Assembly (NCBI GenBank): GCA_015065085.1
Contig: SVQW01000007.1
Span: 991-64,990 of the forward strand
From: Oscillospiraceae bacterium
Lineage (GTDB): Bacteria; Bacillota; Clostridia; Oscillospirales; SIG627
Direction: 5' to 3'
Length of the DNA stretch: 64,000 nucleotides
In this document: positions 26,982 to 56,635 of the stretch, one piece after another
Position numbering within the stretch: the first letter of the stretch is position 1
Layout of the letters: each line of letters opens with the position of its first letter
Notes under the pieces: generated by a model
Told to the model about the DNA's origin: nothing
The model's input: only the letters and a program-made list of their open reading frames with translations
Databases searched by the model: none
Program-made: the position numbers and the translations under genes

Positions 26982-27045
26982 ATTTTCGTCTTTTTGAAAT
27001 ATATTTTATTACCGTCGCGGTATCACGACTTTCTCGAGAGTCCGA

Positions 27046-32485: not shown

Positions 32486-32521
32486 TCAAAAATTAAAGCC
32501 TGCCCGACGGGCAGGCTTTAA
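32486..32521 (-). terminator. Rho-independent terminator after the DUF4430-like gene
   Basis: AAAGCCTGCCC-GAC-GGGCAGGCTTT, followed by AATTTTTG on the minus strand. Confidence 0.75.
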
Positions 32522-32530
32522 TATAAGTTT

Positions 32531-36370: not shown

Positions 36371-36847
36371 ATGAACGAAAAATTCGATTATTCGGCGGTT
36401 GATGCTATCCTTACCGCCAATGCAAACAATCCTAAGGCAATAATCTCCATACTGCAGGAAATTCAGGAGCATTATCACTATCTGCCCCGCGAAGTATTCC
36501 CCTATATGGCGAAGAAGCTCGGTATCAGCGAGGCTAAGGCTTACAGCGTTGCTACCTTTTACGAGAACTTCTCTCTTGAACCCAAGGGTAAGTTCGTTAT
36601 CAAGGTGTGCGACGGCACTGCATGCCACGTAAGACGCTCCATTCCGATTCTGGAAAGACTTCAGAGCGAGCTGGGTCTTACCGACGGCAAAAAGACCACC
36701 GATGACCTCAACTTCACTGTTGAGACCGTATCCTGTCTGGGTGCTTGCGGTCTGGCTCCCGTTCTCACAGTAAACGACAAGGTTTACCCTGAGATGACTC
36801 CCGATAAGGCGAGCGAACTTTTAAAGAAACTCAAGGAGGAATTATAA
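36371..36847 (+). CDS. hydC: [FeFe]-hydrogenase small subunit, NuoE/HydC-like thioredoxin-fold [2Fe-2S] protein
   Basis: VCDGTACHVRRS...CLGACGLAP motif. The start at 36371 is preferred over 36362 on RBS spacing. Confidence 0.85.
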   Translation: MNEKFDYSAVDAILTANANNPKAIISILQEIQEHYHYLPREVFPYMAKKLGISEAKAYSVATFYENFSLEPKGKFVIKVCDGTACHVRRSIPILERLQSELGLTDGKKTTDDLNFTVETVSCLGACGLAPVLTVNDKVYPEMTPDKASELLKKLKEEL

Positions 36848-36850
36848 GCC

Positions 36851-38719
36851 GTGATTAAGAACAGAAACGAGCTTCAGGCGCTGAGAGCTGAGCTTAAGGG
36901 CGCTCTGGATAAGCAAACTAAAAAAATTCTCGTATGTGCCGGTACAGGCTGTATCGCCGGCGGTTCTCTCCAGATATATGACCGTCTGTGCGAACTCATG
37001 AAGGAAAGAAATCTTCCTTACACAGTAGAACTCGAAGTTGACCCTCATGATGATTCCGTAGGTGTTAAGAAGTGCGGATGCCACGGCTTCTGCGAAATGG
37101 GACCCCTGCTCAGAATCGACCCCATGGGCTGGCTGTACACCAAGGTTAAGCTTGAGGACTGCGAAGAAATCATTGAAAAGACCATCATAAACGATGAGCT
37201 TGTTGAGCGTCTTGCTTACAAGAAGAACGGTGAAATTTATCCTAAGCAGGATGAAATTCCCTTCTACAAGAAGCAGACCCGTGTTGTTCTTGAACACTGC
37301 GGACACATCAACGCAGACTCTATCAAAGAATATATCGCAATCGGCGGTTACACCGCATTTGAAAAAGCACTGTTCGATGTTGACGGCGGCGAAATCGTAA
37401 AGACCGTTAAGGATTCCGGTCTTCGCGGACGCGGCGGTGCGGGCTTCCCCGCAGGTATCAAGTGGGAAACCGTAAGAAATACTCCCGCTGACAAGAAATA
37501 CATCCTGTGCAACGGTGACGAGGGCGACCCCGGCGCGTTCATGGACAGAAGTATTATGGAGGGTGACCCCCACAGAGTACTCGAGGGTATGATGATAGCA
37601 GGTGTTGCTACCGGTGCCAACGACGGTTACATATACGTTCGTGCCGAATACCCCATGGCAGTTGCACGTCTTAAGAACGCTATCGCACAGGCAGAGGAAA
37701 TGGGACTTCTGGGTGACAACATCCTGGGCACAGACTTCTCCTTCCACATGCACATCAACCGCGGTGCAGGCGCATTCGTATGCGGCGAGGAAACCGCACT
37801 TATCGCTTCCATTGAGGGCGAAAGAGGCTTCCCCAGAGTACGTCCCCCGTTGACCGTTATCAAGGGTCTGTTCGGCAAGCCCACCGTTCCCAACAACGTT
37901 GAAACCTATGCCAACGTTCCCGAAATCATCAACAAGGGCGCTGAATGGTATCAGTCCCTGGGTACCGCAGGCAATGCCGGAACAAAGGCATTTGCTCTTA
38001 CCGGTAACATTGAAAACACCGGTCTTATCGAAGTTCCCATGGGAACCACACTTCGTGAGATCATTTATGATATAGGCGGCGGCTGCCGCGGCGGCGCTGA
38101 GTTCAAGGCAGTTCAGATAGGCGGTCCCTCCGGCGGATGTCTTACCAACGAGCATATGGATCTGCCCCTCGACTTCGACTCTCTCAAAACCGTTGGCGCT
38201 ATCATCGGTTCGGGCGGTCTGGTTGTTATGGACGAGCACACCTGTATGGTTGAGGTTGCCCGCTTCTTCATGAACTTCACTCAGAACGAATCCTGCGGTA
38301 AATGTATCCCCTGCCGTGAGGGTACCAAGCGCATGCTTGAAATCCTTGAAAGAATCGTTGCAGGCCAGGGCAAGGAAGAGGATATCGAAACCCTTTCCGA
38401 GCTTTCTGATATGATTATCAACACCGCTCTCTGCGGTCTGGGTAAAACTGCTCCTAACCCCGTTCGCAGCACCCTTAAGTACTTCAGAGACGAGTATGTT
38501 GCTCACATCAACGGCACCTGCCCCACCGGCAACTGCAAGAAACTCAAGAAAATTGTTATTGATCCTGACCTTTGTAAGGGTTGCTCCAAGTGCTCCAGAG
38601 CTTGTCCTGTCGGCGCAATTTCCGGTAAGATTAAAGAACCGTTTGTTATCGACCAGGATAAATGTATCAAGTGCGGCGCTTGCGTAAGCACATGTCCCTT
38701 CAAGGCTATCAAGGATTAA
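36851..38719 (+). CDS. hydB: [FeFe]-hydrogenase NADH-binding subunit, NuoF/HydB-like
   Basis: N-terminal 2Fe-2S-like (CAGTGCIAGG), GLRGRGGAGFP FMN/NADH site, ESCGKCIPCREG, and C-terminal 2x CxxCxxCxxxCP. GTG start. Confidence 0.9.
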   Translation: MIKNRNELQALRAELKGALDKQTKKILVCAGTGCIAGGSLQIYDRLCELMKERNLPYTVELEVDPHDDSVGVKKCGCHGFCEMGPLLRIDPMGWLYTKVKLEDCEEIIEKTIINDELVERLAYKKNGEIYPKQDEIPFYKKQTRVVLEHCGHINADSIKEYIAIGGYTAFEKALFDVDGGEIVKTVKDSGLRGRGGAGFPAGIKWETVRNTPADKKYILCNGDEGDPGAFMDRSIMEGDPHRVLEGMMIAGVATGANDGYIYVRAEYPMAVARLKNAIAQAEEMGLLGDNILGTDFSFHMHINRGAGAFVCGEETALIASIEGERGFPRVRPPLTVIKGLFGKPTVPNNVETYANVPEIINKGAEWYQSLGTAGNAGTKAFALTGNIENTGLIEVPMGTTLREIIYDIGGGCRGGAEFKAVQIGGPSGGCLTNEHMDLPLDFDSLKTVGAIIGSGGLVVMDEHTCMVEVARFFMNFTQNESCGKCIPCREGTKRMLEILERIVAGQGKEEDIETLSELSDMIINTALCGLGKTAPNPVRSTLKYFRDEYVAHINGTCPTGNCKKLKKIVIDPDLCKGCSKCSRACPVGAISGKIKEPFVIDQDKCIKCGACVSTCPFKAIKD

Positions 38720-38734
38720 GGAGGCGTAATCAGA

Positions 38735-40435
38735 ATGAGCAATTTTGTTAAAATAGACGGAATTCCCGTTGAAATAGAAAACGAAAAAAATCTGCTTCAG
38801 GTAATCCGTAAAGCAGGCATTAAGATGCCCACCTTCTGCTATCACACCGAGCTTTCCGTTTACGGTGCTTGCCGTATGTGTATGGTAGAAAACGAAAGAG
38901 GCATGCTGGAAGCAGCTTGCTCCACTCCCCCCAGAGCAGGCGGTGCTTACCTCACCAACACCCCCAGACTCAGAAAATACCGCAAGATGATTCTTGAACT
39001 TCTGCTTGCTAACCACTGCCGCGATTGTACCACTTGTGAGGACAACGGCGCTTGTAAGCTGCAGGCTCTTGCAAAAACATATCACATCGAAGGCGTTCGC
39101 TTCCCCAACACCAACGAGCATCCCAAGGAAGACCGTTCCTCCGTTTCCATCGTTAAAGACAGCGCTAAATGTATCCTTTGCGGCGACTGTGTACGTATGT
39201 GTAACGAAATTCAGAACGTTGGCGCTATCGACTTTGCTCACCGCGGCTCCAAGCTGACCATCAGCACCGCGTTTGACAAACCCATCTCCGAGTCTCCCTG
39301 TGTAGGCTGCGGTCAGTGTGCTGCTGTCTGCCCCACCGGTGCTATCGTTGTTAAGAACGATACCAAGAAGGTTTGGGCTGCTCTGGGTGATGAAAATATC
39401 AGAACCTCCGTTCAGGTTGCTCCCGCTGTTCGTGTTGCTATCGGTAAGGAGCTTCACCTCAAGGACGGCGATAACAGCATGGGCAAAATCGTTGCTGCTC
39501 TGCGCCGTATGGGCTTTGACGAAATTTATGACACCACCGTTGGTGCTGACCTTACAGTTCTTGAAGAGTCCAAGGAATTCCTCGAAAGAATTGAAAAGGG
39601 CGAAAATATTCCTCTGTTCACCTCTTGCTGCCCCGGTTGGATCCGTTACGCAGAAAAGAGACATCCCGAGCTTCTCAAGAACATTTCTACCTGCCGCAGC
39701 CCCATGCAGATGTTCGCTTCTCTTATCAAGGAGCAGAACAAGGGCGCTGAAAAGAAGATGTTCCACGTTGCAATCATGCCCTGTACCGCTAAGAAGTTCG
39801 AAGGCGAACGCGAAGAGTTCATGATGGACGGCGAGCTGAATGTTGATGCAGTTCTCACAACTCAGGAGCTTATCCGCATGATTAAGGAATCCGGCGTTAT
39901 CTTCGAAGAGCTTGAACCCGAGGCTTGCGATATGCCTTTCGGCACTATCTCCGGCGCAGGTGTAATCTTCGGTGTTACCGGCGGTGTTACTGAAGCGGTT
40001 CTCAGAAGAGTTTCCGCAGACAAGTCCAGAGCAAATCTGCTTGACGTTGCTAAGATCGGCGTACGCGGAACCGAGGGCATCAAGGAATTCGACGTTCCCG
40101 CAGGCGATGCAACTCTTAAAATCGCTGTTGTCAGCGGTTTGAAAAATGCAGAAACCGTTATCCAGCGCATCCAGGCAGGCGAACACTTCGACCTTGTTGA
40201 AGTTATGGCTTGTCCCGGCGGTTGTGTAAACGGCGGCGGTCAGCCCTTCGTTGACTCGGATACCAAGACCAAGCGCGGCAAGGGTCTGTATACTGCGGAC
40301 AATATGTCTCCCATCCGTCGTTCTGAGGATAACCCCGTTATGGACGCTATCTACAAAGAAATCGTTAAGGGCAGAGAGCACGAGCTTCTCCATGTTCACT
40401 ACAAGCCCGCTTGCACCTGCTGCGACTGCGAATAA
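38735..40435 (+). CDS. hydA: [FeFe]-hydrogenase catalytic subunit
   Basis: H-cluster motifs TSCCPGW, MPCTAKKFE and VMACPGGCVNGGGQP, with an N-terminal 2Fe-2S and accessory 4Fe-4S domains. Confidence 0.95.
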   Translation: MSNFVKIDGIPVEIENEKNLLQVIRKAGIKMPTFCYHTELSVYGACRMCMVENERGMLEAACSTPPRAGGAYLTNTPRLRKYRKMILELLLANHCRDCTTCEDNGACKLQALAKTYHIEGVRFPNTNEHPKEDRSSVSIVKDSAKCILCGDCVRMCNEIQNVGAIDFAHRGSKLTISTAFDKPISESPCVGCGQCAAVCPTGAIVVKNDTKKVWAALGDENIRTSVQVAPAVRVAIGKELHLKDGDNSMGKIVAALRRMGFDEIYDTTVGADLTVLEESKEFLERIEKGENIPLFTSCCPGWIRYAEKRHPELLKNISTCRSPMQMFASLIKEQNKGAEKKMFHVAIMPCTAKKFEGEREEFMMDGELNVDAVLTTQELIRMIKESGVIFEELEPEACDMPFGTISGAGVIFGVTGGVTEAVLRRVSADKSRANLLDVAKIGVRGTEGIKEFDVPAGDATLKIAVVSGLKNAETVIQRIQAGEHFDLVEVMACPGGCVNGGGQPFVDSDTKTKRGKGLYTADNMSPIRRSEDNPVMDAIYKEIVKGREHELLHVHYKPACTCCDCE

Positions 40436-40535: not shown

Positions 40536-40582
40536 AAATCCGAAATAAAACAACAGCCGATGGAATAATTCCATCGGCTGTT
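40536..40582 (-). terminator. Rho-independent terminator downstream of the SASP gene fragment
   Basis: AACAGCCGATGGAA-TAA-TTCCATCGGCTGTT, followed by GTTTTATTT on the minus strand. Confidence 0.8.
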
Positions 40583-40619
40583 TGCTGGTTATACGTTAAA
40601 AAGCGTAATTCAACTTAAA

Positions 40620-40775
40620 TTACTGCTGGTAGCCGTTCTTCATTGCATTCTCGGCGTTCTGAATCATCTTTTTAACCATCTGACCGCCAACGGAACCTGC
40701 CTGCTTGGAGGTAAGATCGCCGTTGTAGCCCTGCTTGAGGTTAACGCCTACTTCTGTGGGTGTTCCCGGACCATA
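40620..40775 (-). pseudogene. 5'-truncated (or split) alpha/beta-type small acid-soluble spore protein gene
   Basis: My translation is ...GPGTPTEVGVNLKQGYNGDLTSKQAGSVGGQMVKKMIQNAENAMKNGYQQ*. It has the conserved SASP C-terminal block (GYNGDLTS.Q.GSVGG.M.K.M). There is no start codon, and an in-frame TAA at 40776-40778 closes the frame. The recombinase stop codon lies 13 nt beyond that TAA. Confidence 0.75.
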
Positions 40776-40790
40776 TTAAAATAGTTTTTT

Positions 40791-42452
40791 TCAGCCGATT
40801 TGTCGCATTTCTTCATCGGCTATATTTCCTATGAATTTGTAATAGATTTTTATTTCCTGTGAATAGCTTTGGTTTCTGTGTGTTACCGTTTTTGTTCCCG
40901 GCGGAAGAATTTTTTCGCCGATTTCGATTTTTTCAATAAAGGTTGTAAGAGTTTCTCTGTCAAGAGTTTCAATGTTTGAATATCGCTTTGCCGCAGAAAA
41001 GAATTTGTCAAAGCTGTCCTTGATTTTTTCTTCGTGGTTTGCCGCCTCTGCCTGCGCAAGTGTTTCCTTGATTTGTGAGGCTTCCTTTTCGTGTTCGCTT
41101 ACCATTGTAAAAAGCCGCTCGTCAGAAAGTCTGCCCTCGGCGTTGTCGGTGTAAAGCTTTGTGATAATTCTGTTTATGGTGTCAAGCCGTTCGATCAGCT
41201 TTCGCTTTTGCACCGCAGAATTGACAACTCCGCTTTTCGCATTTTCACGCCTTATAAGCTCGCTTGCAATTTCGTTCACTTCTTCATCGGAAAGTGTCAA
41301 TAGTTCATTTAGATCCCGCCGTACCACTTCAAGCAAATCTGCATAGCGTATTCTCGTGCCGCTGCAAGGCTCTGTGATGTCCTTACGCTTGTTGATACAG
41401 GAAAGATACCAGTACTTCTCTCGCTCTCCTTTATACACCGTTCCTGCCGAGCATAGAGCGTGTCCGCACTTCTTGCAGTAGACAATCCCCGAAAAAATGC
41501 TCTTTCGCACATTGTCATAGCTTTCGTGCGTCATTGTGCCTTTTCCCATATTGATTTTTGCCTGCTCGAAAACAGCTTCGGAAACAAGCGGCTCGTGAGT
41601 GCTCTCGGTTATCGCCCATTCCTTTTTTGGAGCTGCCATCTTCTTTTTGGATTTAAGGCTGACTTTTTTTGTTTTTCCGAGAATTGTGTGACCGAGATAA
41701 ACGGGATTTTTCAGTATTCGCTTGACGGTAGTGTAGTTCCACAAGTCAGATGCTCTTGCCGCACCTGCTTCGCTGAAGTCATCACGGTATAAAACTCTGT
41801 ACTTTAACGGCGGTATTATGCCGTCACTGTTCAAGTCCATTGCAATCTTCCTTGAAGAATCACCATTTGCTGCCGCCGCAAAAATACGCTTTACGACCGG
41901 AGCTGTTATTTCGTCGGGAACAAGCTTGTTTTTGTCCGCATCACTCTTTTTGTAGCCGTATGGCGGACAAGCACAGTATTGTCCGTGCTCACGCTTGTTC
42001 TTTAAAACCTCTTTGATTTTCTTTGAGCCGTCACGGATATAAACATCGTTCATTGCGTACATAAACGGTGCATAAACGAATGCATCTTCCGTGTTGAAGT
42101 TGTCAACAACCGTTACAAGCTGAACTCCCATTTCGGGCAAAATCTGCTCGGCATAATCGCTAGCTCCGTTCATTTCTCGTCCGAATCGGGATAAATCCTT
42201 TGTGACAACGGTGTTGGCAAGCCCTTTCTTCAGTTGTGAAATCATTTCCTGAAACGCAGGTCTTTCAAAGCTTCCGCCCGACCAGCCGTCGTCAACAAAC
42301 TCGCGTACAAGTGTAATTCCGTTTCTTTCGCAAAAATCCTGAATAATCACTCTTTGGTTCTGAATACTCGACGATTCAGAGCCGTTTTTGCTTTCTTCTC
42401 TTGACAGTCGCAGATAGGCAAATGCTATCCTTGTTTTATTATCGGTTTGCAT
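40791..42452 (-). CDS. Large serine recombinase (TnpX/TndX-like, with DUF4368-like C-terminus)
   Basis: N-terminal resolvase domain (IAFAYLRLSRE with the catalytic Ser), recombinase domain, zinc ribbon (CKKCGHALC...YWYLSC), coiled coil, and the C-terminal motif IEKIEIGEK...IKIYYKFIG. Confidence 0.9.
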   Translation of the reverse strand: MQTDNKTRIAFAYLRLSREESKNGSESSSIQNQRVIIQDFCERNGITLVREFVDDGWSGGSFERPAFQEMISQLKKGLANTVVTKDLSRFGREMNGASDYAEQILPEMGVQLVTVVDNFNTEDAFVYAPFMYAMNDVYIRDGSKKIKEVLKNKREHGQYCACPPYGYKKSDADKNKLVPDEITAPVVKRIFAAAANGDSSRKIAMDLNSDGIIPPLKYRVLYRDDFSEAGAARASDLWNYTTVKRILKNPVYLGHTILGKTKKVSLKSKKKMAAPKKEWAITESTHEPLVSEAVFEQAKINMGKGTMTHESYDNVRKSIFSGIVYCKKCGHALCSAGTVYKGEREKYWYLSCINKRKDITEPCSGTRIRYADLLEVVRRDLNELLTLSDEEVNEIASELIRRENAKSGVVNSAVQKRKLIERLDTINRIITKLYTDNAEGRLSDERLFTMVSEHEKEASQIKETLAQAEAANHEEKIKDSFDKFFSAAKRYSNIETLDRETLTTFIEKIEIGEKILPPGTKTVTHRNQSYSQEIKIYYKFIGNIADEEMRQIG

Positions 42453-42651
42453 TCATGTCCTCCCCAACCGACCCATCTATATTATACATTACATTCGCAC
42501 TTGTTGTCAACAAAGGCTCGTAATTTCCGTTATTTTCCTTTGCTATGCTTTCTGTTATGAGTTGCTTTACAGTGTTTTTTCCATAACATCTTTCAACCGT
42601 ATAAAGTACAGGACTGAACTCGTAATTCTTTTTTGTCAAATAAATCACCAC
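42439..42651 (-). CDS. Small hypothetical protein overlapping the recombinase start (possible accessory or directionality factor)
   Basis: A 70-aa ORF with a GTG start and a weak RBS (AGAAAG). It overlaps the recombinase gene by 14 nt. No family recognised. Confidence 0.35.
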   Translation of the reverse strand: MVIYLTKKNYEFSPVLYTVERCYGKNTVKQLITESIAKENNGNYEPLLTTSANVMYNIDGSVGEDMNANR

Positions 42652-43426
42652 GCTTTCTTTTTGTGATTCTCAATAAGGGGCTTGCCCCGTCATTCAACGT
42701 GGCAAGGTGCGGTTTTGCCGCACTGAAATCAGCGGAGGATTGTACTCCTGCTGATTTCATAATGTCACCTGCGTGACATCTTGCCTAAGTTATGTTACCC
42801 AAATTTTTGGCAAATTATCAGAATTGAAGAAGCAAAGGAAAAAGGAGCGAAGAAAACAAAAAACACACATAGGTATCCCGTAGATACAAAATGTGTGTTT
42901 AAAATCCAATAAATATTTTAGTTCCTGTAATTAGTTTTGCCTCAAAAGAGCATAGCTCTCCCAAGGCTTTAAAAAATCGTTTCATTCCTGCGAAGGCATA
43001 TGCCTCCCAGGAAAGCCCAAAAATCGTTGATGCCTTTCGGCATCGACTGCTTTCCATTTTGAACACCCGATCCCATGCGTATCGAGCTGCCGGGAATTCG
43101 ACCGTCCACGCAGTCAAAGACACTGTCAAACCCTGTTCGATGAAATATTTCCCATCTCACGACTATATTATACCACAAGCAAAAATCATTTACAAGAGGT
43201 GGAGCTGTAAAAGTTGAATTTTTTAAATTTTGAATTGAAAACCCTTGTGCCACAAGGGTTTCAGAGGGGTAGAGGTGGAGAAATCGATGTTTTTTTGAGG
43301 CGAAAATTTTAAAAATTTTTCGAAAAACGCTCCCGGTACTTTTGTTTCAATATAAGGTTTTCTCAAAAGTTCTGACGGTTTGGCGGGGCTTCTTAAAACA
43401 ATTAAATTTATTAAAACCTAGAAATC

Positions 43427-43501
43427 TTGTTGACTTTAATCATAATTTAATTGTAAATATTTTCGGAATGATTACTTGAGCCTGTTGACTTAAATCATAA
43501 T
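43427..43501. repeat. Two direct copies of T-GTTGACTT-(T/A)-AATCATAAT, 55 bp apart, in the abiE promoter (operator candidates)
   Basis: TTGTTGACTTTAATCATAAT (43427-43446) and CTGTTGACTTAAATCATAAT (43482-43501) match at 18 of 20 positions. Confidence 0.7.
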
Positions 43502-43513
43502 ACTGTGTATAAT
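43485..43513 (+). promoter_or_regulatory. Sigma-A type promoter for abiEi-abiEii
   Basis: TTGACT, a 17-nt spacer, then TATAAT. It overlaps repeat copy 2. Confidence 0.55.
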
Positions 43514-43544
43514 ATTATTGGATTATTATTGTCGAGGTGAGTTT

Positions 43545-44138
43545 ATGGATTATATGAGTGAACTTGCCGCTATTGCAAAAATGCATGGCGGAATTATTGA
43601 AACGAAAATAGCAGCGCAGCAAGGCATCTCTAAGACAATGCTTTATAAGCTGTGCAAAGAAGATAAAATCCACCGCATTGTTAAAGGTCAGTACATTCTT
43701 CCGGATGATATACAGGATGAATTATTGGCAATCAGCAACCGTTCAGAAAGAATCATTTTTTCTCACGAAACAGCTCTTTACCTTCACGGAATTTCTGATC
43801 GTACTCCATTTGAGCATACGGTTACTGCACCGTCTGGCTGTATTCCTTCTGCGGCAATTAAATCTGAATGCAAGGTGTATTACATCAAGCCTGAGTTGTT
43901 TGAACTGGGCAAAACAACGCTGAGAACACCTGCCGGAAATGATGTTCCTGCATATGATCTTGAACGCACAATCTGTGATGTAATTCGCAGTCGAAACAAA
44001 TTGGGAACAGAAACTTTCCTTGCGGCATTAAAGCTGTATGCGGCGAGCCACAAAAAAGATTTGAATAAACTAAACTCTTGCGCAAAAAAAATGCGTGTTG
44101 ATAAAGTATTGCGTCAATATTTGGAGGTACTCCTATGA
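43545..44138 (+). CDS. abiEi: AbiEi-family antitoxin (type IV TA)
   Basis: N-terminal winged-helix region (GIIETKIAAQQGISKTMLYKLCKEDKIHRIVKGQY) and the AbiEi C-domain. The start is the ATG at 43545 after GAGGTGAG. Confidence 0.8.
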   Translation: MDYMSELAAIAKMHGGIIETKIAAQQGISKTMLYKLCKEDKIHRIVKGQYILPDDIQDELLAISNRSERIIFSHETALYLHGISDRTPFEHTVTAPSGCIPSAAIKSECKVYYIKPELFELGKTTLRTPAGNDVPAYDLERTICDVIRSRNKLGTETFLAALKLYAASHKKDLNKLNSCAKKMRVDKVLRQYLEVLL

Positions 44139-44959
44139 GCAAAGCAATGAGTCTGAAAGCGAAAATTCGCAATATTGCCAAGCAGAAAAATATTCCTGCA
44201 CAGGTCATTCTGCAAAACTATATGTTTGAACGTTTGCTTGTCCGTTTGTCTGCTTCTGAATACAAAGAGAAGTTTGTATTAAAGGGAGGTATGTTGGTAG
44301 CCGCCATTGTCGGACTGGACAACCGTGCAACAATGGATATGGACACCACGCTCAAAAATCTCCCTCTTACACCGGAAGCGATTCGCGGTGCGTTGGAGGA
44401 TGTCTGCAACATCGCATTTGATGACGGAGTTGAGTTTGAGATTGGCACGATATCTCCCATACGTGAAGATGATATTTACGGCGGTTATCGTGTCATGTTG
44501 AATGCAAAATTTGATACTCTGCTGACGCCACTCAGTATTGATGTATCCACTGGTGATGCAATTACACCTCATGCAGTACAGTACAATTTCTCTGAAATTT
44601 TTGATGATGAGAAATCATATGAACTGTGGGCATACAACATAGAAACCGTTATGGCTGAAAAGGTGGAAACCATTTTGCGACGCGGCGTGTTTAATACTCG
44701 CCCAAGAGATTTCTATGATGCCTATATACTGACCACAACACAGAACTTCGATAAGGCTGTGTTTGCGGATGCATTAAAAGCAACGGCAAATCACCGGGGA
44801 ACTACAGAGCAGATTGCGGATATTTCCGATATTCTTCATAACATCGAAGAAAGCCCGGAACTTAAAACAATGTGGGACAAGTATCGCAAGCAGTTTGCGT
44901 ATGCTGCGGATATTGAGTATGGTCAGATTATGGATGTGCTGAAAATGTTGATAGAATAA
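44135..44959 (+). CDS. abiEii: AbiEii/AbiGii-family nucleotidyltransferase toxin (DUF1814)
   Basis: The N-terminus is LKAKIRNIAKQKNIPAQVILQNYMFERLLVRLS...FVLKGG, with DMD in the NTase core. There is a 4-nt ATGA overlap with abiEi. Confidence 0.85.
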   Translation: MSKAMSLKAKIRNIAKQKNIPAQVILQNYMFERLLVRLSASEYKEKFVLKGGMLVAAIVGLDNRATMDMDTTLKNLPLTPEAIRGALEDVCNIAFDDGVEFEIGTISPIREDDIYGGYRVMLNAKFDTLLTPLSIDVSTGDAITPHAVQYNFSEIFDDEKSYELWAYNIETVMAEKVETILRRGVFNTRPRDFYDAYILTTTQNFDKAVFADALKATANHRGTTEQIADISDILHNIEESPELKTMWDKYRKQFAYAADIEYGQIMDVLKMLIE

Positions 44960-45038
44960 CAGCCCGGACAAAATACAGAGGTATAGATATCATTTACAAA
45001 CAACACTCATAAAAATTTCAGAAAATGGAGTAAAACAC

Positions 45039-47603
45039 ATGAAAAATAATACGTATTTGACCGAAGCAGATGTCGAAACAAAGTTTATTTATGCATATTT
45101 AATTGGTGAAGTTTTGGAGGTCAGCGGTAAAAATGTCAGTTTTCATGTCCCCGTAAAAATTACTCAGGGACGAAAAACTGTAACCAAAGAAGCTGATGTT
45201 CTCATAAAGAACGACAAAGGCGAAAATGTGGTAGTCATTGACTCGAAAGCTCCAGACGAAAAGCTTGAGCCATACTTTGATCAAATAGATTCTTATGCAT
45301 TTAGGTTGGAAACTCCTATCTCAATTCTTTCAAATTACTACAGAACAGTTGTTAGGGTATATTTGTCTGGAAACAAAAAGGAAATCATTTTCGACCAAAC
45401 GATAGAGGAAATGGAAGCAGATAGTTTCAAGGAATTAATAGAAATTGTAAAAAAATATATGGAAACACCTTCCGCTACTTTTGATGGTAAAAAAATGGAT
45501 GCAGAAAAAAGTAAAATAGTTGATTATAGACGTTTGTTTAGACAAATACATACAAAAATCAGATCGATTGACAAATTAGATCCGTCTGCATCATTTGATG
45601 AATTCTCCAAAATACTGTTTATCAAAATAATCAATGATAAAATCTCTGCCGAAGAACGCTTAACTCCTGAACGTATTAAAGTGTTTGGCACAACCAAAGA
45701 GCAATCCAATTATGTTGACACTTGGTTCCAAAAGAAAGTTAAGGAGCATTACCCTGGTATTTTTGCAAATAATGTGAAAATATCCGCATCGTCAACTGCA
45801 TTGATCGCTATATTGGAAACATTGGATGGACGATTTGATTTAAAGGATTCATTAAACGATATTAAGGGTAGAGCTTTTGAAGAATTCCTTCCTAGCCAGT
45901 TAAGGGGAAAGGGCCTTGGACAGTTCTTCACTCCAAGATCTGTCGTTGAATTTATGATAGAGTTGGCTGATATATCTATAACTGATAAGGTTTTGGATTT
46001 CGCATCCGGCTCAGGTGGATTCCTTATTAAAGCTTTTGACAGAAAAAGAAAATTAATAGAAGAAACACAACAACAATATTTAGATTTAATAGGAAAAAAT
46101 CGAGAGCAGCTATTGGAAGATACCAAGACTCAAATTTTCGGTATTGATGCTGAACCTAGAGCTGTAAGAACAGCAAAGATGAACATGCTGTTATGGGGTG
46201 ACGGAAAGCAGATCCAACACGGAAACGGATTGGATACCAAAGACTACACAGGAACTCCATATTTTGCGAAGGAGTACAACGAATCCGATCCTTCTACCGG
46301 AGTAGATATCATACTCGCTAATCCACCATTCGGTTCTACAGAAGAAGATCAGAATATTTTGGCAAAGTACACACTTTCCAAAAAGATCAAAAAGAAAGAC
46401 GAGAGTGGAAGAGAGTATATTGTTAATCAAAAGGAAAAGACAGAGCATCTGTTTATCGAGAAAGCATTCAAAATGTTAAGACCAAACGGCAAACTCTTAA
46501 TTGTTTTACCAGAAGGAATCTTTAGTAATAATGATTCTAAAGTTAGGGATTACATTCTGAGCCATTTTGTCATTGATACTATTGTGAAATTACCCAAGCA
46601 TACGTTTGTCATGTCTGGTGTAGACACAATAAACACCGTAATTTTGATTGCTAGAAAGAACACTGCTGAGCGAATGAAGAAAATCAAATTTTCAGATAAA
46701 AAAACTTGGATTAACTCAGCTGAAATTATGACAATCAATTTTGCTTCTGTTAACCAAACGGGATTTGAACCTTCTGGCAAAGCAATAAACGGAGGATATA
46801 CAAATAGTGATCTGAAAATATTAGCAAACAAAATCACAAATGGTGACTTTAGCCAAATTTTAGCGGATCCTATCGAATACGCTGATCTTGCATTTAGCGA
46901 TGACAACAAGAACGAAGTTTGGAAAGAATCTATGGTCAAGTTTTTAACTATAGGTTTTACAAGTGTCCCTAAAAGATTGGATCCGACATATTATTTCTTT
47001 AGCGAAGAAACCAAAGATATTATGAAATCTTTTATTGGACTGGATATTACAGAAGATAATTTAGGCAGAAATCGCCTCACGGAGCAAGAACTTATCGAAG
47101 ATGTTGAAAAGACATACACATATGTTTCGGTTGTAAAAACCATTGATGGTTCAATCACAACGACAGAAGAAAAAACAGTTGATGAGCTATTAGCAACTGA
47201 TTTGCCACAAAAACTTCAATATGGGGATATTGTGTTTAACCCGTACAGAATAAACACAGGATCAATAATCTTGATTGATTCGCGTGAAAAAAACTTGGTA
47301 ACAAGTCCAGCTTATGTTGTAGTTAGAGATTTAAAAATTGATTCAAAATATTTCGTTCAATTATTGAAAACTCCGTTTATGAAATATCAGATACAAGTAC
47401 TGGCATCAGGATCTGTAAGAGATAATTTTTCGGGTTCCAATTTGTATGAATTGAAAATCCCTAATATTGATTCATATGAGCAAAAAGATCTCGTGTTAAG
47501 CATTAATAAAATGCTTAAGAAAATCAAAAAACATTCTCAAGCAATAGACCAAGACATTAATTCTATAAATGCACTACTCAGCAATTTTGGCGGCTTAGAT
47601 TAA
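45039..47603 (+). CDS. Single-polypeptide restriction-modification enzyme candidate: HsdR_N/PD-(D/E)xK-like N-terminus + gamma-class N6-adenine methyltransferase + one HsdS-like TRD (Type IIG/IIL-like)
   Basis: Nuclease-fold pattern EADVLI...VVVIDSKAP. MTase motifs GQFFTPRSVV, DFASGSGGFL and ILANPPFGS. The C-terminal TRD-like region ends in ...LASGSVRDNFSGSNLYELKIP. No separate hsdR or hsdS gene is nearby. Confidence 0.75.
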   Translation: MKNNTYLTEADVETKFIYAYLIGEVLEVSGKNVSFHVPVKITQGRKTVTKEADVLIKNDKGENVVVIDSKAPDEKLEPYFDQIDSYAFRLETPISILSNYYRTVVRVYLSGNKKEIIFDQTIEEMEADSFKELIEIVKKYMETPSATFDGKKMDAEKSKIVDYRRLFRQIHTKIRSIDKLDPSASFDEFSKILFIKIINDKISAEERLTPERIKVFGTTKEQSNYVDTWFQKKVKEHYPGIFANNVKISASSTALIAILETLDGRFDLKDSLNDIKGRAFEEFLPSQLRGKGLGQFFTPRSVVEFMIELADISITDKVLDFASGSGGFLIKAFDRKRKLIEETQQQYLDLIGKNREQLLEDTKTQIFGIDAEPRAVRTAKMNMLLWGDGKQIQHGNGLDTKDYTGTPYFAKEYNESDPSTGVDIILANPPFGSTEEDQNILAKYTLSKKIKKKDESGREYIVNQKEKTEHLFIEKAFKMLRPNGKLLIVLPEGIFSNNDSKVRDYILSHFVIDTIVKLPKHTFVMSGVDTINTVILIARKNTAERMKKIKFSDKKTWINSAEIMTINFASVNQTGFEPSGKAINGGYTNSDLKILANKITNGDFSQILADPIEYADLAFSDDNKNEVWKESMVKFLTIGFTSVPKRLDPTYYFFSEETKDIMKSFIGLDITEDNLGRNRLTEQELIEDVEKTYTYVSVVKTIDGSITTTEEKTVDELLATDLPQKLQYGDIVFNPYRINTGSIILIDSREKNLVTSPAYVVVRDLKIDSKYFVQLLKTPFMKYQIQVLASGSVRDNFSGSNLYELKIPNIDSYEQKDLVLSINKMLKKIKKHSQAIDQDINSINALLSNFGGLD

Positions 47604-47729: not shown

Positions 47730-47969
47730 GCCGTCTATTTGGTTATTTATTCCATTACTTCCAACATTATTTTTGCTTCCAGCTTACCATAAAATCCAAG
47801 TTAATCGACACCCGAAAGGTCAAACTCAGACGGATTTTCAATTATGGATATTTCAGAATAAGTGGCGCACATACCTTTTGTGTAAGAGAAATCGTTGTTC
47901 CTGTCAATGAAAAAACATACAGAGGGTGTGACTTGAAGCTTAGGGGACAAATACCCAAAGTCTCGGGTA

Positions 47970-48089
47970 TAGCCACCCATTTCCCATACTTTTTCCCATA
48001 CCTTTGAATTAAAATTCAAAATATTTTTTTGTTTTTCCTAAACTTTTAAGTGTTTGGTCGGGGGACAAATTTCAAAAAAAATATATAAT
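47970..48089 (+). promoter_or_regulatory. Promoter module copy 1, upstream of the zinc-ribbon/TPM operon
   Basis: A 36-nt block, TAGCCACCCATTTCCCATACTTTTTCCCATACCTTT (direct repeat TTCCCATAC x2), then TTTTCCTAAACTTT, then GTGTTTGGTCGGGGGACAAAT. GGGACA (48062-48067), a 16-nt spacer, then TATAAT (48084-48089). Confidence 0.6.
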
Positions 48090-48234
48090 TATACTTACAA
48101 GAACAGAAGCGATAGGATATTATTTTTGCGTTCTAAGGATAACAAGGGGCATGCAAACACTTGTATATGAACTTCACCAACGGATGCGTAAAAAACTCTG
48201 TTATTCTAACGCGTTTCCGAAGGGAGGATAGCCT

Positions 48235-48597
48235 ATGCAAAAAAAAATGGCAAAGCACAGATTGATTACCGACAGCGAAGGAAAATTACGTTATCAGTTT
48301 TTCTGCGATTTATCGGGATCGCTTGAGTATACGTCAAGCTCCATAAATGCAGATTCCGAGGAGGAACTTGAACGTGTATGGAATAAAAACGCAAAAGAGC
48401 ACTTCAATCTATGTCACAAATGTGGGATTTATGTAAGCTCTGAAATGTTTAACGCCGAGGTTTTTGAGTGTGTAGCTTGTGCTCCGTGGGAGGAGGCTCC
48501 GAAATATTGTCCTCATTGCGGACAAAAGGTTAATGGTTCGGGAAACAACTGCAGCTATTGTGAAAAGAAACTGCGTTATGAGGGGGGAGAGGTATGA
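48235..48597 (+). CDS. Small protein with two zinc-ribbon motifs
   Basis: CHKCG...CVAC and CPHCG...CSYC. RBS GGGAGG 8 nt upstream. Confidence 0.65.
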   Translation: MQKKMAKHRLITDSEGKLRYQFFCDLSGSLEYTSSSINADSEEELERVWNKNAKEHFNLCHKCGIYVSSEMFNAEVFECVACAPWEEAPKYCPHCGQKVNGSGNNCSYCEKKLRYEGGEV

Positions 48598-48601
48598 AAC
48601 T

Positions 48602-48874
48602 ATGACAGCACCTTATGAAAAAATACGTCTTGAGAATATGAAGCACTATGGCTTCGGTCCCGAGGTAATGAAAAGAATAAAGGTTTGCAAGGAATGCGGT
48701 GCAAAAGCTGATTCGGAGCTTCTCTTTTGTCCCGATTGTGACAGACCTCTTCCGACGGAAACTCTCTATACGCTGTATGTGCATAGCCATTTTGTATGTA
48801 CAAAGTGCAAAACGGTAGTATCGGCAAAATATAAATTCTGTCCACAGTGTGGTAAAAAACTTATTTTTGAATAA
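48602..48874 (+). CDS. Double zinc-ribbon protein (90 aa)
   Basis: CKECG...CPDC and CTKC...CPQCG. The start is set at the ATG at 48602 (MTAPYEK), 4 nt after the previous stop. The longer ORF-track start overlaps the upstream gene. Confidence 0.6.
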   Translation: MTAPYEKIRLENMKHYGFGPEVMKRIKVCKECGAKADSELLFCPDCDRPLPTETLYTLYVHSHFVCTKCKTVVSAKYKFCPQCGKKLIFE

Positions 48875-48923
48875 TCAGATAATAAAACAAAAACAAAAAA
48901 ATACATTTACGGAGGTATTTATT

Positions 48924-49682
48924 ATGGCAAAGAACACATGTGCAATATGCGGAGCAGAAGTTAATCTGTTTACAGGACAGCAGCTGGCGGATAAGACATA
49001 TATCTGCCGTAAGGTATGTGCAAAGAAGTGTCTTAAAATCTTCGATTTTGTTCCCGCAACTCTTGACGAGGTAAAATCACACATTGAGCAGGTTGAAAAG
49101 GGTACAAAAGTATGGAATCAGATTTTTGTTCCTTTGCAGAAAACAAAGGTCAAGGAAGAAAAGCTGAAGAGATTTGGTGCCCCCCTTTATGTGTCACCCT
49201 CAACAGGACTTATGGCACTTGTTGAAACAAGATATAAGTTCATTGTTTTCGGCAAAAGCCAGCTTGCCTGCGTTTACAGAATAGCAGATCTCGCTTCCTA
49301 TGAATATGAGGAAGAGTCGGTGAAAAATTCCGAGGGCAAGATAGAAAAGAAGGAATTTTGCCGTATGTTCTTCCACAATACGGCAGGTCTTTACAGCTTC
49401 CGCTTTGAGATAAGCAACAGCCTTGAATTTAAGTCGCTTGAAAAGTATTTTGATACTCTCTTCGGTATTCAGAAAACTCTTGGCAACTCCATAAACAACG
49501 CAAAAAAGCAGTGGGCAGCAATCAAGGATGTTGCAGGTGCGGTAAAGGCTGCGGCTTCAGGTGACGAAAATGTCGAAGAAAAAGCGGCAGCGGCGGCAGA
49601 AAGTCTCGGTACATATCTTGAGGGTGACAGAACAGAGCTTATCGCAAAGGCTGATGCGGCTCTTGCAGGTGTTCAGTATTGA
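48924..49682 (+). CDS. N-terminal zinc-ribbon protein with a central beta-rich (PH-like?) domain and an Ala-rich helical tail
   Basis: CAICG...C.KVCAKKC at the N-terminus. The start is the ATG at 48924 after GGAGGT. The domain guesses come from sequence texture only. Confidence 0.6.
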   Translation: MAKNTCAICGAEVNLFTGQQLADKTYICRKVCAKKCLKIFDFVPATLDEVKSHIEQVEKGTKVWNQIFVPLQKTKVKEEKLKRFGAPLYVSPSTGLMALVETRYKFIVFGKSQLACVYRIADLASYEYEEESVKNSEGKIEKKEFCRMFFHNTAGLYSFRFEISNSLEFKSLEKYFDTLFGIQKTLGNSINNAKKQWAAIKDVAGAVKAAASGDENVEEKAAAAAESLGTYLEGDRTELIAKADAALAGVQY

Positions 49683-51091
49683 CGGCGGTGATAACATTGA
49701 AGAAAATAATATCATTGTTGCTTGTTTTTACACTTTGTGCGATGCTGTTTGTTTCCTGCACTCAAGAGAACGATAAGCCTGATGTGAAAAACAATAACGA
49801 TGTAACAGAAACTGATGACAGTCAAGGTGACAAAACAACATCAAAACCTGATAAATCAGAAAAGGAAGACGAGTTACTTACAGAACTCAGAAAGCAGATA
49901 TCCGACAGCGGTGCAAAGCTGGGTGTTGCATATCTCGGATACTTTGTTGAAACATTTGATGACACAAAAGATTATTTTAAATATTTAGGACTGTATGAAG
50001 ACTATCCCTTTGTTGAAGAAATGGAGCTTGGTGACCTTATCGTAAACGAAAACAACGAGATGTATCTTGTTGTACCTGCCGATAGTACAGAAACAGTCAA
50101 GGTATACGACGCAGTACCTGATGAAGAAACCTATGAGCTTGAAAAGGGTGAGCTTTTAGGCGAATCGGCAAATGGAAAACCGTTCCTTCTTCTTTGCAAT
50201 GTCAGCGAAATAATACCAAATGTGATCATAAGCACAAGCACCCTTGAATACAGTCCCTGTCTTTCGGGCGAGGACGGAGAGCTTGTAGAGAATCAAGATA
50301 TTTACGATTTTTCGCCTTATGAGAAAATAAAAGAGTATTATGACATTCAGAACGGTCTTGCAGATGGAGCAGATCCCATATTCTGCGGAAGCTGGTTCGG
50401 AGAATCGGAAAACGGCGACTACGAGCTTATGTCAATGAGCCTTGAACTTTACGTAGACGGAACAGCAACCTACGTATACGGCGTTGGAAACAGCGAGCCT
50501 GTAGAGTGGTTTATGGGCGAATGGAGCTTTGATGCCGAGCGTGATATGATCATTCTTGATATGTACGGTGGACCGCCAAACGACTATGAAGATTCCGATG
50601 AATTGTTTATAGACCCGTATGAACTGAAGTGCGGTTTTAAGTGGGATATGGATTACCGTGATGACGGAACTTATCTCATTCTTACACACGAAGAGGGCGA
50701 TCCCATACTGTGGGGCAAGAACGGTGCAACATTTGAGTTTGCAGAGGCTTCCGGGCCCGAGGAAGAGGAAGATTACTCTTACCTTATCGGCTCATGGGGA
50801 ATAATCTCTGAAAAATCAGAAACATACCTTGAGTTGTTTCCCGATGGCTCGGCGCACTATTATGTAACAAGGGACGATGTGACAGAAAAAGACCTTCGCG
50901 GCTCATGGCATGCCGAAGCTCTTACATTGTACCTTACACTCGGCGAAAATGAAGCTTTGACGGGAGCTTACGGTATTATGTATGACGGTGAGCTGCTTAT
51001 TCTGTCCATTCTCGATGATTTCGCCGAACCGCTGACGGCTTTTATGGCAGAAAACGGATATGACAGCTTTATACTTTGCGGTGTAGGCTGA
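49679..51091 (+). CDS. Acidic secreted lipoprotein with repeated G-x-W lipocalin-like modules
   Basis: Signal peptide KKIISLLLVFTLCAMLFVSC (lipobox). Non-ATG start candidates lie at 49679 (TTG), 49688 (GTG) and 49697 (TTG). Repeated GSWFGE/GEWSFD/GSWGII/GSWHAE segments. Confidence 0.65.
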   Translation: MTAVITLKKIISLLLVFTLCAMLFVSCTQENDKPDVKNNNDVTETDDSQGDKTTSKPDKSEKEDELLTELRKQISDSGAKLGVAYLGYFVETFDDTKDYFKYLGLYEDYPFVEEMELGDLIVNENNEMYLVVPADSTETVKVYDAVPDEETYELEKGELLGESANGKPFLLLCNVSEIIPNVIISTSTLEYSPCLSGEDGELVENQDIYDFSPYEKIKEYYDIQNGLADGADPIFCGSWFGESENGDYELMSMSLELYVDGTATYVYGVGNSEPVEWFMGEWSFDAERDMIILDMYGGPPNDYEDSDELFIDPYELKCGFKWDMDYRDDGTYLILTHEEGDPILWGKNGATFEFAEASGPEEEEDYSYLIGSWGIISEKSETYLELFPDGSAHYYVTRDDVTEKDLRGSWHAEALTLYLTLGENEALTGAYGIMYDGELLILSILDDFAEPLTAFMAENGYDSFILCGVG

Positions 51092-51120
51092 TAATACAGT
51101 AATTTGAAAGGAGTGTTTAT

Positions 51121-52206: not shown

Positions 52207-52219
52207 GGGGGTGTGAATT

Positions 52220-53017
52220 ATGAAAAACAGAATATTTACACTGCTTGTTGCAATATTGTCGGTTATAATGCTGACAGTAGGCGTTGCTGCCGAAGATGAG
52301 TATTATCGTTTGCAGGATTTAACAGAAGTACCGCTTCTTACCGAAAGCGAAAACGCTGAAATTCTTGCTCTTCTTGATGAAGTAAGCGAGAGACAAGGAA
52401 TGGATATTGCCATTCTCACGGTAGATGCTGTGGAAGAAGGTCTTACCGTTGAAGAGGATGCTACCGAATGGTATGAGTATCTCGGTTACGGCGACGACGG
52501 TGCAATGCTGTATATCAGCATGGAAGAAAGTGACTGGTATTATCTCACAAAGGGCTTCGGAATTACCGCAATGACAGATGCGGGAATAGATTACATATCC
52601 GAAAAGTTCCTTCCTGCTCTTTCCGACGGTGACTATGCAGGTGCATTCAGAGCATATATCCAGTATACCGACGAGTTTATAACACAGGCAAAAACAGGCA
52701 AACCCTACGACGTGGGAAATATGCCAAAAGAGCCCTATGACTTGCCGATGAGCCTTCTCGTTTCAGTAGGCATTGGTCTTTTGGTTTCTCTTATAATAAC
52801 AAGCATATGGAAAGGTCAGCTCAAGAGCGTTGCGTTCAAGACACAGGCGACAAGTTACTTGAAGCCCGGAAGCCTTAGCATCGCAAACTCCCGTGACTTC
52901 TTCCTATACAGAACAGTTGACCGCAGAGAAAAAGAAAATGAATCATCATCCGGTGGTTCTTCAACACACAAGTCATCTTCCGGTGGAACATATGGCGGAA
53001 AAGGCGGAAAATTCTAA
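52220..53017 (+). CDS. TPM-domain membrane protein (YgcG/YdjH-like) with a Gly/Ser-rich tail
   Basis: Signal/TM helix, TPM-like region (LLTESENAEILALLDEVSERQGMDIAILTV), a second TM helix, and the tail SSSGGSSTHKSSSGGTYGGKGGKF. Confidence 0.7.
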   Translation: MKNRIFTLLVAILSVIMLTVGVAAEDEYYRLQDLTEVPLLTESENAEILALLDEVSERQGMDIAILTVDAVEEGLTVEEDATEWYEYLGYGDDGAMLYISMEESDWYYLTKGFGITAMTDAGIDYISEKFLPALSDGDYAGAFRAYIQYTDEFITQAKTGKPYDVGNMPKEPYDLPMSLLVSVGIGLLVSLIITSIWKGQLKSVAFKTQATSYLKPGSLSIANSRDFFLYRTVDRREKENESSSGGSSTHKSSSGGTYGGKGGKF

Positions 53018-53032
53018 AAAAAGGAGTTTGCC

Positions 53033-53428: not shown

Positions 53429-53502
53429 CCAATTATCGAAGATATAGCCGATTGTTTCCGTCTGATTATAGTTAAAATATAAAATTAAAAGGAGAAGCTG
53501 TT

Positions 53503-56625: not shown

Positions 56626-56635
56626 TGTTTCACCT

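Follow-up and report, generated by a model that had tools for sequence, protein, structure and literature searches.

The 64,000-nucleotide stretch of DNA analysed here (the window) comes from an Oscillospiraceae bacterium and contains, beside the gene for a large serine recombinase (LSR), a fragment of an ssp gene encoding an alpha/beta-type small acid-soluble spore protein (SASP). The fragment is one half of a gene that is split by a 36-kb island. Most probably, this island was integrated into ssp by a recombinase of the TnpX/TndX type, with the interrupted ssp copy being sacrificed and no developmental control being involved. As far as sequence comparison goes, the structure of the island, the position of its attachment (att) sites and the specificity of the recombinase sub-family for ssp are established.

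The two halves of the ssp gene

On the minus strand, the window sequence 40620-40820 translates as ...IG*KKLF*YGPGTPTEVGVNLKQGYNGDLTSKQAGSVGGQMVKKMIQNAENAMKNGYQQ*. The 3' part of ssp accounts for 40620-40754 of this sequence, with 44 codons (EVGVNL...NGYQQ) and a stop codon, and represents the host-derived B' side of the left attachment site, attL. The encoded peptide matches the SASP family PF00269 (E=1.2e-18) over profile positions 21-59 of 59 only, which means that the N-terminal third of the protein is missing from the fragment. As the initial annotation had described, the frame has no start: an in-frame TAA is found upstream at 40776-40778, and no in-frame start codon is present between this TAA and EVGV. 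The gene is followed, still in host DNA, by an intrinsic terminator (40552-40582, minus strand) with a 14-bp stem and then a T run. A duplicate of this hairpin, identical in 30 of 31 nucleotides, is located at 32492-32522, between two chromosomal genes 8 kb from ssp. The terminator, the recombinase stop codon at 40791-40793 and the fall in GC content were all found as first reported. The distance from the recombinase gene to the junction, which had been put at 15-20 bp, has to be revised, since 37 bp separate the GA dinucleotide at the junction (40753-40754) from the recombinase stop codon; the earlier figure is nearer to that of the TAA, 12 bp from the same stop.

Among the thousands of SASPs of 64-69 amino acids that were retrieved, the closest protein to the fragment is P0002, in which MNTKRLVPDAKEAMDKFKMEAAS is followed by EVGVNLKQ...NGYQQ. 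The amino acids of the fragment are 100% identical to the matching part of the intact 67-aa proteins P0002 and P0361. Within the contig that encodes P0002 (L001), nucleotide similarity is confined to positions 1734-1868, which correspond to window positions 40754-40620 and are 88.9% identical; as this similarity ends at 40754, 23 codons are lacking from the window fragment. In agreement with the initial annotation, no ssp 5' half was detected within the window by regular-expression search, tblastn (E up to 1000) or blastn-short.

The window is 100% identical to the JGI contig Ga0224413_10002855, window coordinates being record coordinates minus 990. No ssp sequence is present rightward of the last window gene up to 73,832, that is, in the next 9.8 kb, where searches for the distal arm of the element were also empty. 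The distal end was reached by searching with the last surface-protein gene seen, which gave three contigs, L181-L183, with 100% identity to the window across 61560-64000. These contigs hold a 31-aa gene with a PF00269 match, on the same strand as the window fragment, the product of which consists of the ssp 5' half MNNKRLVPEAKEAMDKFKMEAAS and then DEDVTDTY*, an 8-codon read-through into the element. The exact 31-aa product is also encoded on the window's own contig, at record positions 77,706-77,801 (window-equivalent 76,716-76,811). The 5' half, which the initial annotation had proposed to look for past nt 64000 beside the right attachment site (attR), is therefore found there, at a distance of 12.7 kb from nt 64000 and in the orientation of the 3' half, where it adjoins the distal arm of the element. 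It retains its upstream (promoter) region, in which partial matches to the sigma-G consensus were seen by eye only and no promoter could be assigned with confidence. The 31-aa read-through frame across attR (P0365; NCBI MBR3995878.1) is annotated in NCBI metagenome-assembled genomes (MAGs) as a genuine alpha/beta SASP.

On contig L001, the match to the 5' half extends to nucleotide 1735 and that to the 3' half begins at nucleotide 1734, so that both halves overlap by exactly two nucleotides, GA. The host sequences that flank the island are contiguous in this uninterrupted relative. Once joined, the halves encode a 67-aa SASP with an exact public match, P0361, which occurs on contigs of other species with about 86% nucleotide identity. 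Whereas the window fragment does not hold a complete SASP domain in a single open reading frame (ORF) with a start codon, the joined sequence does. The gene is cut at codon 24, with 23 codons at the distal end and 44 codons on the recombinase side. The insertion of an element into an ssp gene, which had been suggested from the window alone, is thus supported by the finding of the 5' half on the same contig, by the fit of the two halves with a GA overlap and by the exact public match of the joined protein.

Attachment sites and extent of the island

The predicted crossover dinucleotide GA (40753-40754, minus strand) corresponds to the first two bases of a Glu codon and comprises the only bases common to attL, attR and the uninterrupted orthologue. 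The element-side half-site of attL (40755-40780, minus strand) is made up of a 7-nt spacer, ACCCACA, and a 19-nt P arm, TTTAATATGGTCCGGGAAC. In the direction of ssp, attL reads TTTAATATGGTCCGGGAAC ACCCACA GA AGTAGGCGTTAAC... and attR reads ...GAAGCCGCAAGT GA TGAGGAT GTCACCGATACATATTAAA, with the attR core at record positions 77,731-77,732 of Ga0224413_10002855. The attP rebuilt from both ends is 54 bp long and has two 26-bp arms that form an imperfect inverted repeat around GA, with 19 of 26 positions matching; the predicted attP is TTTAATATGGTCCGGGAACACCCACAGATGAGGATGTCACCGATACATATTAAA and the predicted attB, which encodes K-F-K-M-E-A-A-S-E-V-G-V-N-L, is ATAAATTCAAGATGGAAGCCGCAAGTGAAGTAGGCGTTAACCTCAAGCAGGGCT. 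A shared core of 2 bp and an imperfect inverted repeat of about 50 bp are the marks of att sites of LSR elements. Furthermore, the arm motif TTTAAnATGnnnnGGGnAC, followed by 7 nt and GA, is conserved beside homologues of the recombinase.

The island bounded by these sites extends from 40,755 to window-equivalent 76,740 (40755-64000 within the window, no strand assigned) and the unit between the two cores measures 35,986 bp. No internal copy of either arm, or of a 135-nt distal end that is conserved among related elements, was found inside this unit. Inner ends at 45.0, 47.7-48.2 or 55.5 kb had been considered from the end of similarity to a related locus (L097), the GC profile and the synteny with a relative (L017). 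None of these positions has ssp, arm or distal-end sequence, and they were rejected when attR turned up at 76.7 kb.

The recombinase and its upstream region

The recombinase gene (40791-42452, minus strand) encodes a TnpX/TndX-like LSR of 553 aa with four Pfam domains. Resolvase (PF00239, 4.8e-21), Recombinase (PF07508, 4.3e-24) and Zn_ribbon_recom (PF13408, 4.9e-08) all match above their curated cut-offs, and DUF4368 (PF14287, E=3.5e-16) is found at the C-terminus, in residues 474-544. The protein retains every column that is invariant across 22 homologues, including Y13, R15 and S17. Its best solved relative is the catalytic domain of TnpX (2MHC, E=1.2e-21), followed by SprA/YokA of SPbeta at about 1e-14. 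Judged by homology, the recombinase belongs to the TnpX/TndX group.

A consensus scan identified a putative sigma-A-type promoter of the recombinase gene at 42481-42510 (minus strand), with the sequence TTGACA-18-TATAAT and 12 of 12 consensus positions. Of 83 homologous loci, 80 have the pattern TTGAC[AG]-N16-19-TATAAT at this same distance, about 60 nt, ahead of the start codon, and the two boxes are kept even where the small ORF that overlaps them codes for different residues. Sporulation-type promoters were not detected ahead of the recombinase gene, nor was any known directionality factor recognised. Between the -10 box and the ribosome-binding site, most homologues have a conserved leader, GTGGGTCGGTTCGTCG(A/T)AAGGAGG, of which the window version is GATGGGTCGGTTGGGGAGGA (about 42457-42480, minus strand). 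This leader may be an operator or an RNA element.

The small ORF (42439-42651, minus strand; 70 aa) lies upstream of the recombinase start, which it overlaps, and is called as a gene in metagenome contigs. An ORF occupies the same position in L097, L100, L162 and other related loci, and its 3' end includes the recombinase promoter. Under a strict pattern, the motif (T)Y-x-V-x-R-x-[FY]-x(4-7)-V-x-x-L-I was recovered from at least 38 of 77 loci, in ORFs of about 65-75 aa. The product has no match in Pfam, NCBIfam or PHROG, and BLASTP finds no pairwise match between the window and L100 versions. This small protein could be an accessory or directionality factor.

A sub-family of recombinases specific for ssp

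Scans of viral and metagenome sequences with the single recombinase protein gave nothing, whereas the 22-homologue alignment, when used as the query, recovered 80 metagenome loci (55-62% identity). Together with L097-L100, these make a set of 84 loci, with recombinases that are 55-96% identical to that of the window. In 76 of the 84 loci, an ssp 3' half starting at EVGVNL is found 21-201 nt downstream of the recombinase stop codon. Five further loci have the ssp 5' half there, in inverted orientation, and three have neither half, one of them on a contig that ends after 140 nt. Since 81 of the 84 loci abut an ssp half, the sub-family is specific for one gene family, and it is 'multi-target' only in that ssp is multi-copy. 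Homologues of the window recombinase thus occupy this ssp position in many gut Clostridia. One of the loci, L162, is a 3.4-kb element for which both ssp halves are available, with the same arm motif and GA geometry.

The distal ends lead to a similar picture. The exact 31-aa attR product was found in at least 68 contigs. When seven of these other places were compared with the window locus, the upstream host flank and the ssp promoter region proved different, whereas the element keeps about 90% conservation over its first 135 nt; beyond these, the cargo diverges. Such a pattern points to related elements, alike at their ends and different in cargo, that were inserted independently in the ssp genes of different hosts.

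The closest relatives allow host and element DNA to be told apart. In L097-L099, a 96%-identical recombinase is found in another genomic context, and is followed by the same 45-residue ssp peptide. The stretch that the window and L097 have in common (40609-45005, 88-93% nucleotide identity) comprises the LSR and the AbiE genes; similarity is lost 11 nt from the ssp stop codon at one end and shortly after AbiEii (45005) at the other. Of the 132 nt of the ssp fragment, 20 differ between the window and L097, all of them synonymous (proportion of synonymous differences, pS, 0.75; non-synonymous divergence, dN, 0), compared with a pS of 0.24 and a dN of 0.02 for the recombinase gene. L189, a relative of the L097 locus with an empty site, has an intact ssp beside khpA-rpsP-ffh. 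In L097 itself, a second element (12020-16801), with DUF6061, an FGE-sulfatase, a NikA-like protein and its own 580-aa DUF4368 recombinase, lies between the ssp 3' end and khpA-rpsP-ffh, which places two recombinase elements back to back.

The five inverted loci are L117 (11642-11740), L154, L159, L163 and L178, the latter four with the ssp sequence at the same position after the recombinase, and possibly L116 belongs with them. In these five, the arm nearest the recombinase meets the 5' half of ssp at a core that reads TC (...GGAAC ACCAAGG TC GTTGGCAGCCTCCATCTTAAA). The ssp genes concerned encode D/E-L-G-V, and their coding-strand CCTTGG thus matches the CCAAGG spacer of the element.

A second recombinase family uses the same gene at another position. 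Seventeen of the 76 3' halves are cut again after ...GGQMVKKM (one of them after ...GGQMVK); apart from these cuts, the 3' halves of the family are free of frameshifts and premature stops. In L143 and L150, an 8-kb second element ends in another recombinase, followed by the ssp tail KKMIESYEKNL*, so that one ssp gene is found in three pieces with two different elements. This second recombinase is 45% identical to the 570-aa recombinase of L016, the ORF of which reads on through the last 14 codons of ssp, in the same frame, and ends on the ssp stop codon. The second-family sequences are located at 2698-4410 in L016, 2662-2751 and 9458-11200 in L143, and 9687-11430 in L150. The 570-aa family is only 28% identical to the window LSR, is unrelated to it and cuts ssp further downstream, which makes ssp a hot spot for at least two recombinase families. 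Another unusual ssp sequence is P0001 (64 aa), a SASP-like ORF with its 3' segment in two tandem copies (NLKQGYNGDLTSRQAGSVGGQMVK twice), which is perhaps a by-product of recombination at ssp.

Proposed mechanism and relation to known systems

In the proposed mechanism, the 54-bp attP would recombine with an attB in the conserved ssp coding sequence, with crossover at the GA of the Glu codon. Integration would leave the promoter and 23 codons at the far end of the island, and 44 codons and the terminator beside the recombinase gene. As a gene that all endospore formers conserve, that is usually multi-copy and that stays silent during growth, ssp may offer a favourable landing site. The interrupted copy would be inactive while the island is present, its function presumably being covered by other ssp paralogues. 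The recombinase would be expressed constitutively from its housekeeping-type promoter, and excision, if any, would not be tied to sporulation.

These features are reminiscent of TndX, which invariably recombines at a central GA, suffices for integration as well as excision and has a preference for conserved coding sequence, namely that of the Fic domain (PMC4430133). TnpX, for its part, is given as the only element protein required in a reference cited in the literature. The island is similar to Tn5397 (TndX) and Tn4451/Tn4453 (TnpX) with regard to the domain set of the recombinase, which includes DUF4368, and TnpX is also the best solved relative. The GA crossover predicted for L162, and for the pair formed by the window and the distal contig L191, is that of TndX, and on either side of the core the two ends of the element are imperfect inverted repeats, as in the Tn5397/Tn4451 group. 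However, the island differs from Tn5397 in its ssp target and in having no conjugation module, from Tn4451 in having no mobilisation or resistance module, and from both in its 36 kb of defence, regulatory and surface-protein cargo. The comparison with TnpX covers the catalytic domain, and the window enzyme may excise without a helper.

Serine-recombinase elements are also found within the coding sequences of other sporulation genes, such as skin in sigK (SpoIVCA), SPbeta in spsM (SprA/SprB), vfbin in spoVFB, vrin in spoVR and gin in gerE, and the SPbeta recombinase SprA/YokA is the second-best solved relative of the window LSR. Such elements leave two intact halves that are joined precisely upon excision (PMC4191935; PMC5595907). 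In contrast to the ssp gene of the window, the targets of skin, SPbeta, vfbin, vrin and gin are specific to the mother cell. Moreover, skin-type excision depends on a directionality factor under a mother-cell promoter, whereas the window recombinase has a promoter of the sigma-A type.

The DUF4368 clade has been described as multi-targeting, with many unrelated genes as targets (Durrant et al., bioRxiv 10.1101/2021.11.05.467528). The window recombinase shares the DUF4368 domain with this TndX-like clade, of which Cp36 is an example, but its sub-family does not have relaxed targets, as 81 of the 84 loci are at ssp. In the library searched, no paper on ssp as a recombinase target or attachment site was found.

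Stability of the insertion and points of doubt

All contigs that encode the exact protein of the host gene hydA (21 contigs), of the recombinase (23) or of the LuxR regulator (19) have the same integrated arrangement. The insertion thus appears to be stable. That the ssp copy is simply sacrificed is most likely, and is favoured by the conserved sigma-A-type promoter and by the membership of the TnpX/TndX group, which according to the literature needs no directionality factor. An intact, near-identical ssp (P0009) in the same samples is in line with it.

Several observations nevertheless weigh against an island that was integrated as a whole by its recombinase at the expense of ssp. Among the contigs with the exact hydA, recombinase or LuxR protein, no empty site of the same species was found, and a circular attP junction was likewise not observed in it. 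An empty site was also sought among GTDB relatives with hydA (the best 90% identical), none of which has ssp or the right-flank genes beside hydA. In a genus-level relative, L017 (hydA 77% identical), homologues of island genes are found next to hydA, in the order hydA, small ferredoxin, 7TM-LuxR, SLH, DUF6935, Band_7, DUF4428-like and 361-aa homologue, with no ssp or recombinase at the hydA side. The region L017 2146-12145 corresponds to window 48.8-65.5 kb, as two blocks in reversed order relative to the window. Either a related island has decayed in L017, or, given the position of these homologues beside hydA, some of the 36 kb may be chromosomal DNA of old standing that came to lie between the att sites. 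With regard to composition, GC drops from about 0.48-0.51 to 0.34-0.42 across 42-49 kb and is lowest at the methyltransferase gene (0.34-0.36). Clearly atypical GC and tetranucleotide content is limited to this interval, and the remainder of the island resembles the host flank beyond attR, for which reason composition is of no use as an island boundary. In the ORFs tested, which did not include every small ORF, no Pfam or PHROG match to phage structural or lysis genes, conjugation genes or relaxases was obtained, and no PHROG match was informative as to function. The DUF4368 recombinase Cp36 has been reported to be unidirectional in human cells, which makes self-sufficient excision less than certain. 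The reading of a sacrificed copy leans on the promoter consensus and on analogy with the family. Finally, P0009, which has the same first 23 residues and lies at another locus, can be tied to two of the same samples and not to the same genome.

Alternative explanations

The composition and the L017 arrangement could also be accounted for by a composite origin, in which only the LSR/AbiE/methyltransferase part of about 7 kb is mobile and the other 29 kb are chromosomal DNA that was rearranged into place later, so that the 36-kb unit would never have moved as a whole. The strong anomaly at 42-49 kb is in line with this, as are the restriction of the similarity with L097 to window 40609-45005 and the occurrence of the L017 cargo homologues in another order, without ssp or recombinase. 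Such an origin seems unlikely, however, since no internal arm or copy of the 135-nt distal end marks an inner boundary and the distal arm directly abuts the ssp 5' half. Moreover, at least two non-inverting breaks would be required to go from the L017 order to that of the window, and other family members too have only their ends in common, with different cargo.

The alpha/beta SASP genes are forespore (sigma-G) genes. Skin-type excision is safe for the element because the element is lost only from the discarded genome of the mother cell, and, SASPs being forespore proteins, this logic does not apply to ssp. The initial annotation had raised this point, which is a fair question, and it leads to a second alternative, namely that the gene is rebuilt during development, with the island being excised in the forespore or at germination and then kept as a circle or re-integrated, in what would be a germ-line counterpart of skin/sigK and SPbeta/spsM. 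Both halves, of 23 and 44 codons, are undamaged and protein-identical to intact orthologues, the 3' halves of the family carry no inactivating changes save the second-element cuts, and a directionality factor, which could act as the switch for germ-line rebuilding, might be encoded by the conserved small ORF that precedes the recombinase gene. The intactness of the halves, however, is explained by recent horizontal arrival (pS of ssp far above that of the recombinase), the recombinase promoter is of a conserved sigma-A and not a sporulation type, and the integrated state is seen in every contig of this species. In addition, all known split sporulation genes are mother-cell genes, in which loss of the element is not inherited (PMC4191935). 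Developmental rebuilding thus appears quite improbable, and an excision linked to sporulation, that is, rebuilding in the inherited cell line, is if anything slightly more so.

The finding of the same 45-residue peptide after the 96%-identical recombinase of L097-L099 might suggest that the ssp 3' fragment is a copy carried by the element, which travels with the recombinase and is not host DNA. This is hardly tenable, as it is refuted both by the 20 synonymous differences in 132 nt, which far exceed the divergence of the recombinase gene, and by the intact gene in place in L189; the near-identity of the terminator to another copy in the host chromosome also speaks against it. A simple pseudogene that lost its 5' end by an old deletion beside an unrelated recombinase gene, as the absence of the 5' half from the window and the next 9.8 kb could have indicated, can be dismissed, since this half and its promoter region are on the same contig and strand beside the matching arm, and the same junction recurs in 76 of 84 loci. 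Relatives have no intact, differently started ORF of this kind.

Cargo of the island and neighbouring sequences

Next to the recombinase, an AbiEi/AbiEii toxin-antitoxin pair for abortive infection is encoded at 43518-44959 on the plus strand (PADLOC AbiEi 7e-69 and AbiEii 5e-102; Pfam AbiEii 9e-44). It is followed, on the same strand, by the gene for an N6-adenine DNA methyltransferase of 854 aa with a specificity-like C-terminus (45039-47603; PF02384 2.6e-39, Eco57I 3.4e-15). This protein, which may be type I or IIG-like, also matches NCBIfam MAD2 (5e-66, below the cut-off) and PADLOC MTase_I/II and Specificity_I. According to Pfam, the plus-strand cluster at 48235-55530 encodes Zn-ribbon proteins, a DUF4428 protein, proteins of 470 aa and 361 aa, a TPM-domain protein, a HEAT-repeat protein and others, to which neither PADLOC nor PHROG assigned a function. 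The minus-strand genes at 55588-59840 encode a 7TM-LuxR regulator, a helix-turn-helix (HTH) protein, a 538-aa LuxR regulator and a solute-binding protein (Pfam HisKA_7TM, GerE and SBP_bac_8). A 1015-aa S-layer-homology (SLH) protein and a DUF6935 protein are encoded at 60183-63832 on the plus strand (Pfam SLH and DUF6935). Past the window, as seen in L006, L181 and L191, the island continues with Band_7, a 297-aa protein, an SLH protein of 1665 aa with Zn_dep_PLPC and an SLH protein of 660 or 670 aa, and then with DUF3298 and a 383-aa protein before attR. The SLH proteins of L006 13246-20319 (window-equivalent 66.5-73.6 kb) have an unusual combination of domains, with a Zn-dependent phospholipase C domain and matches to GTP_EFTU_D2/D3, domains 2 and 3 of EF-Tu, and the 660-aa and 670-aa variants result from a 30-nt indel between strains.

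Neither relatives of the recombinase, searched for with the single protein as query, nor the att pattern were detected in viral contigs. The element is best called a recombinase-bounded genomic island. An Rfam scan of the window yielded no RNA family.

Inside the island, an inverted repeat of 137 nt (81% identical) is present at 47967-48103, upstream of the Zn-ribbon cluster, and at 59831-59967, upstream of the gene for the solute-binding protein. The two copies may act as a common promoter or leader, perhaps for the LuxR regulators. Another intergenic repeat, of about 235 nt and 95% identical, is found in inverted orientation on both host sides of the island (window 26812-27042, and L181 16176-16405 in the host flank beyond attR) and is not present inside it. 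This repeat is MITE-like (resembling miniature inverted-repeat transposable elements), with two internal hairpins and with short bracketing hairpins that differ between the copies. On the host side adjoining ssp, a low-complexity open frame of 1185 aa, rich in Ala, Gly and Val, runs antisense to the hydrogenase genes hydB/hydA (36842-40399, minus strand). This frame almost certainly just happens to lack stop codons on the antisense strand and does not represent a gene.

Implications

With ssp, a known kind of mobile element gains a new target, and mechanistically nothing new is shown. Nonetheless, the list of sporulation genes split by serine-recombinase elements has so far been limited to mother-cell genes, and ssp would be the first among them to be expressed in the forespore. 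Recombinases with DUF4368 are usually described as promiscuous, whereas one sub-family is specific for a small and highly conserved gene family, and the same 200-bp gene is used at another site by a second, unrelated recombinase family. For annotation, the ends of islands of this kind are marked by short 'SASP' ORFs, such as the 31-aa ORF in NCBI MAGs, and by ssp pseudogenes. The definition of a 54-bp attP and a natural attB, with similar targets in the ssp genes of many Clostridia, suggests a landing site for the engineering of Clostridia that are hard to modify. If several ssp copies are occupied, the protection of spore DNA in gut Clostridia could be affected. Germ-line rebuilding of ssp, if true, would mean that a programmed DNA rearrangement of a sporulation gene is seen for the first time in the germ line and not in the discarded mother cell.

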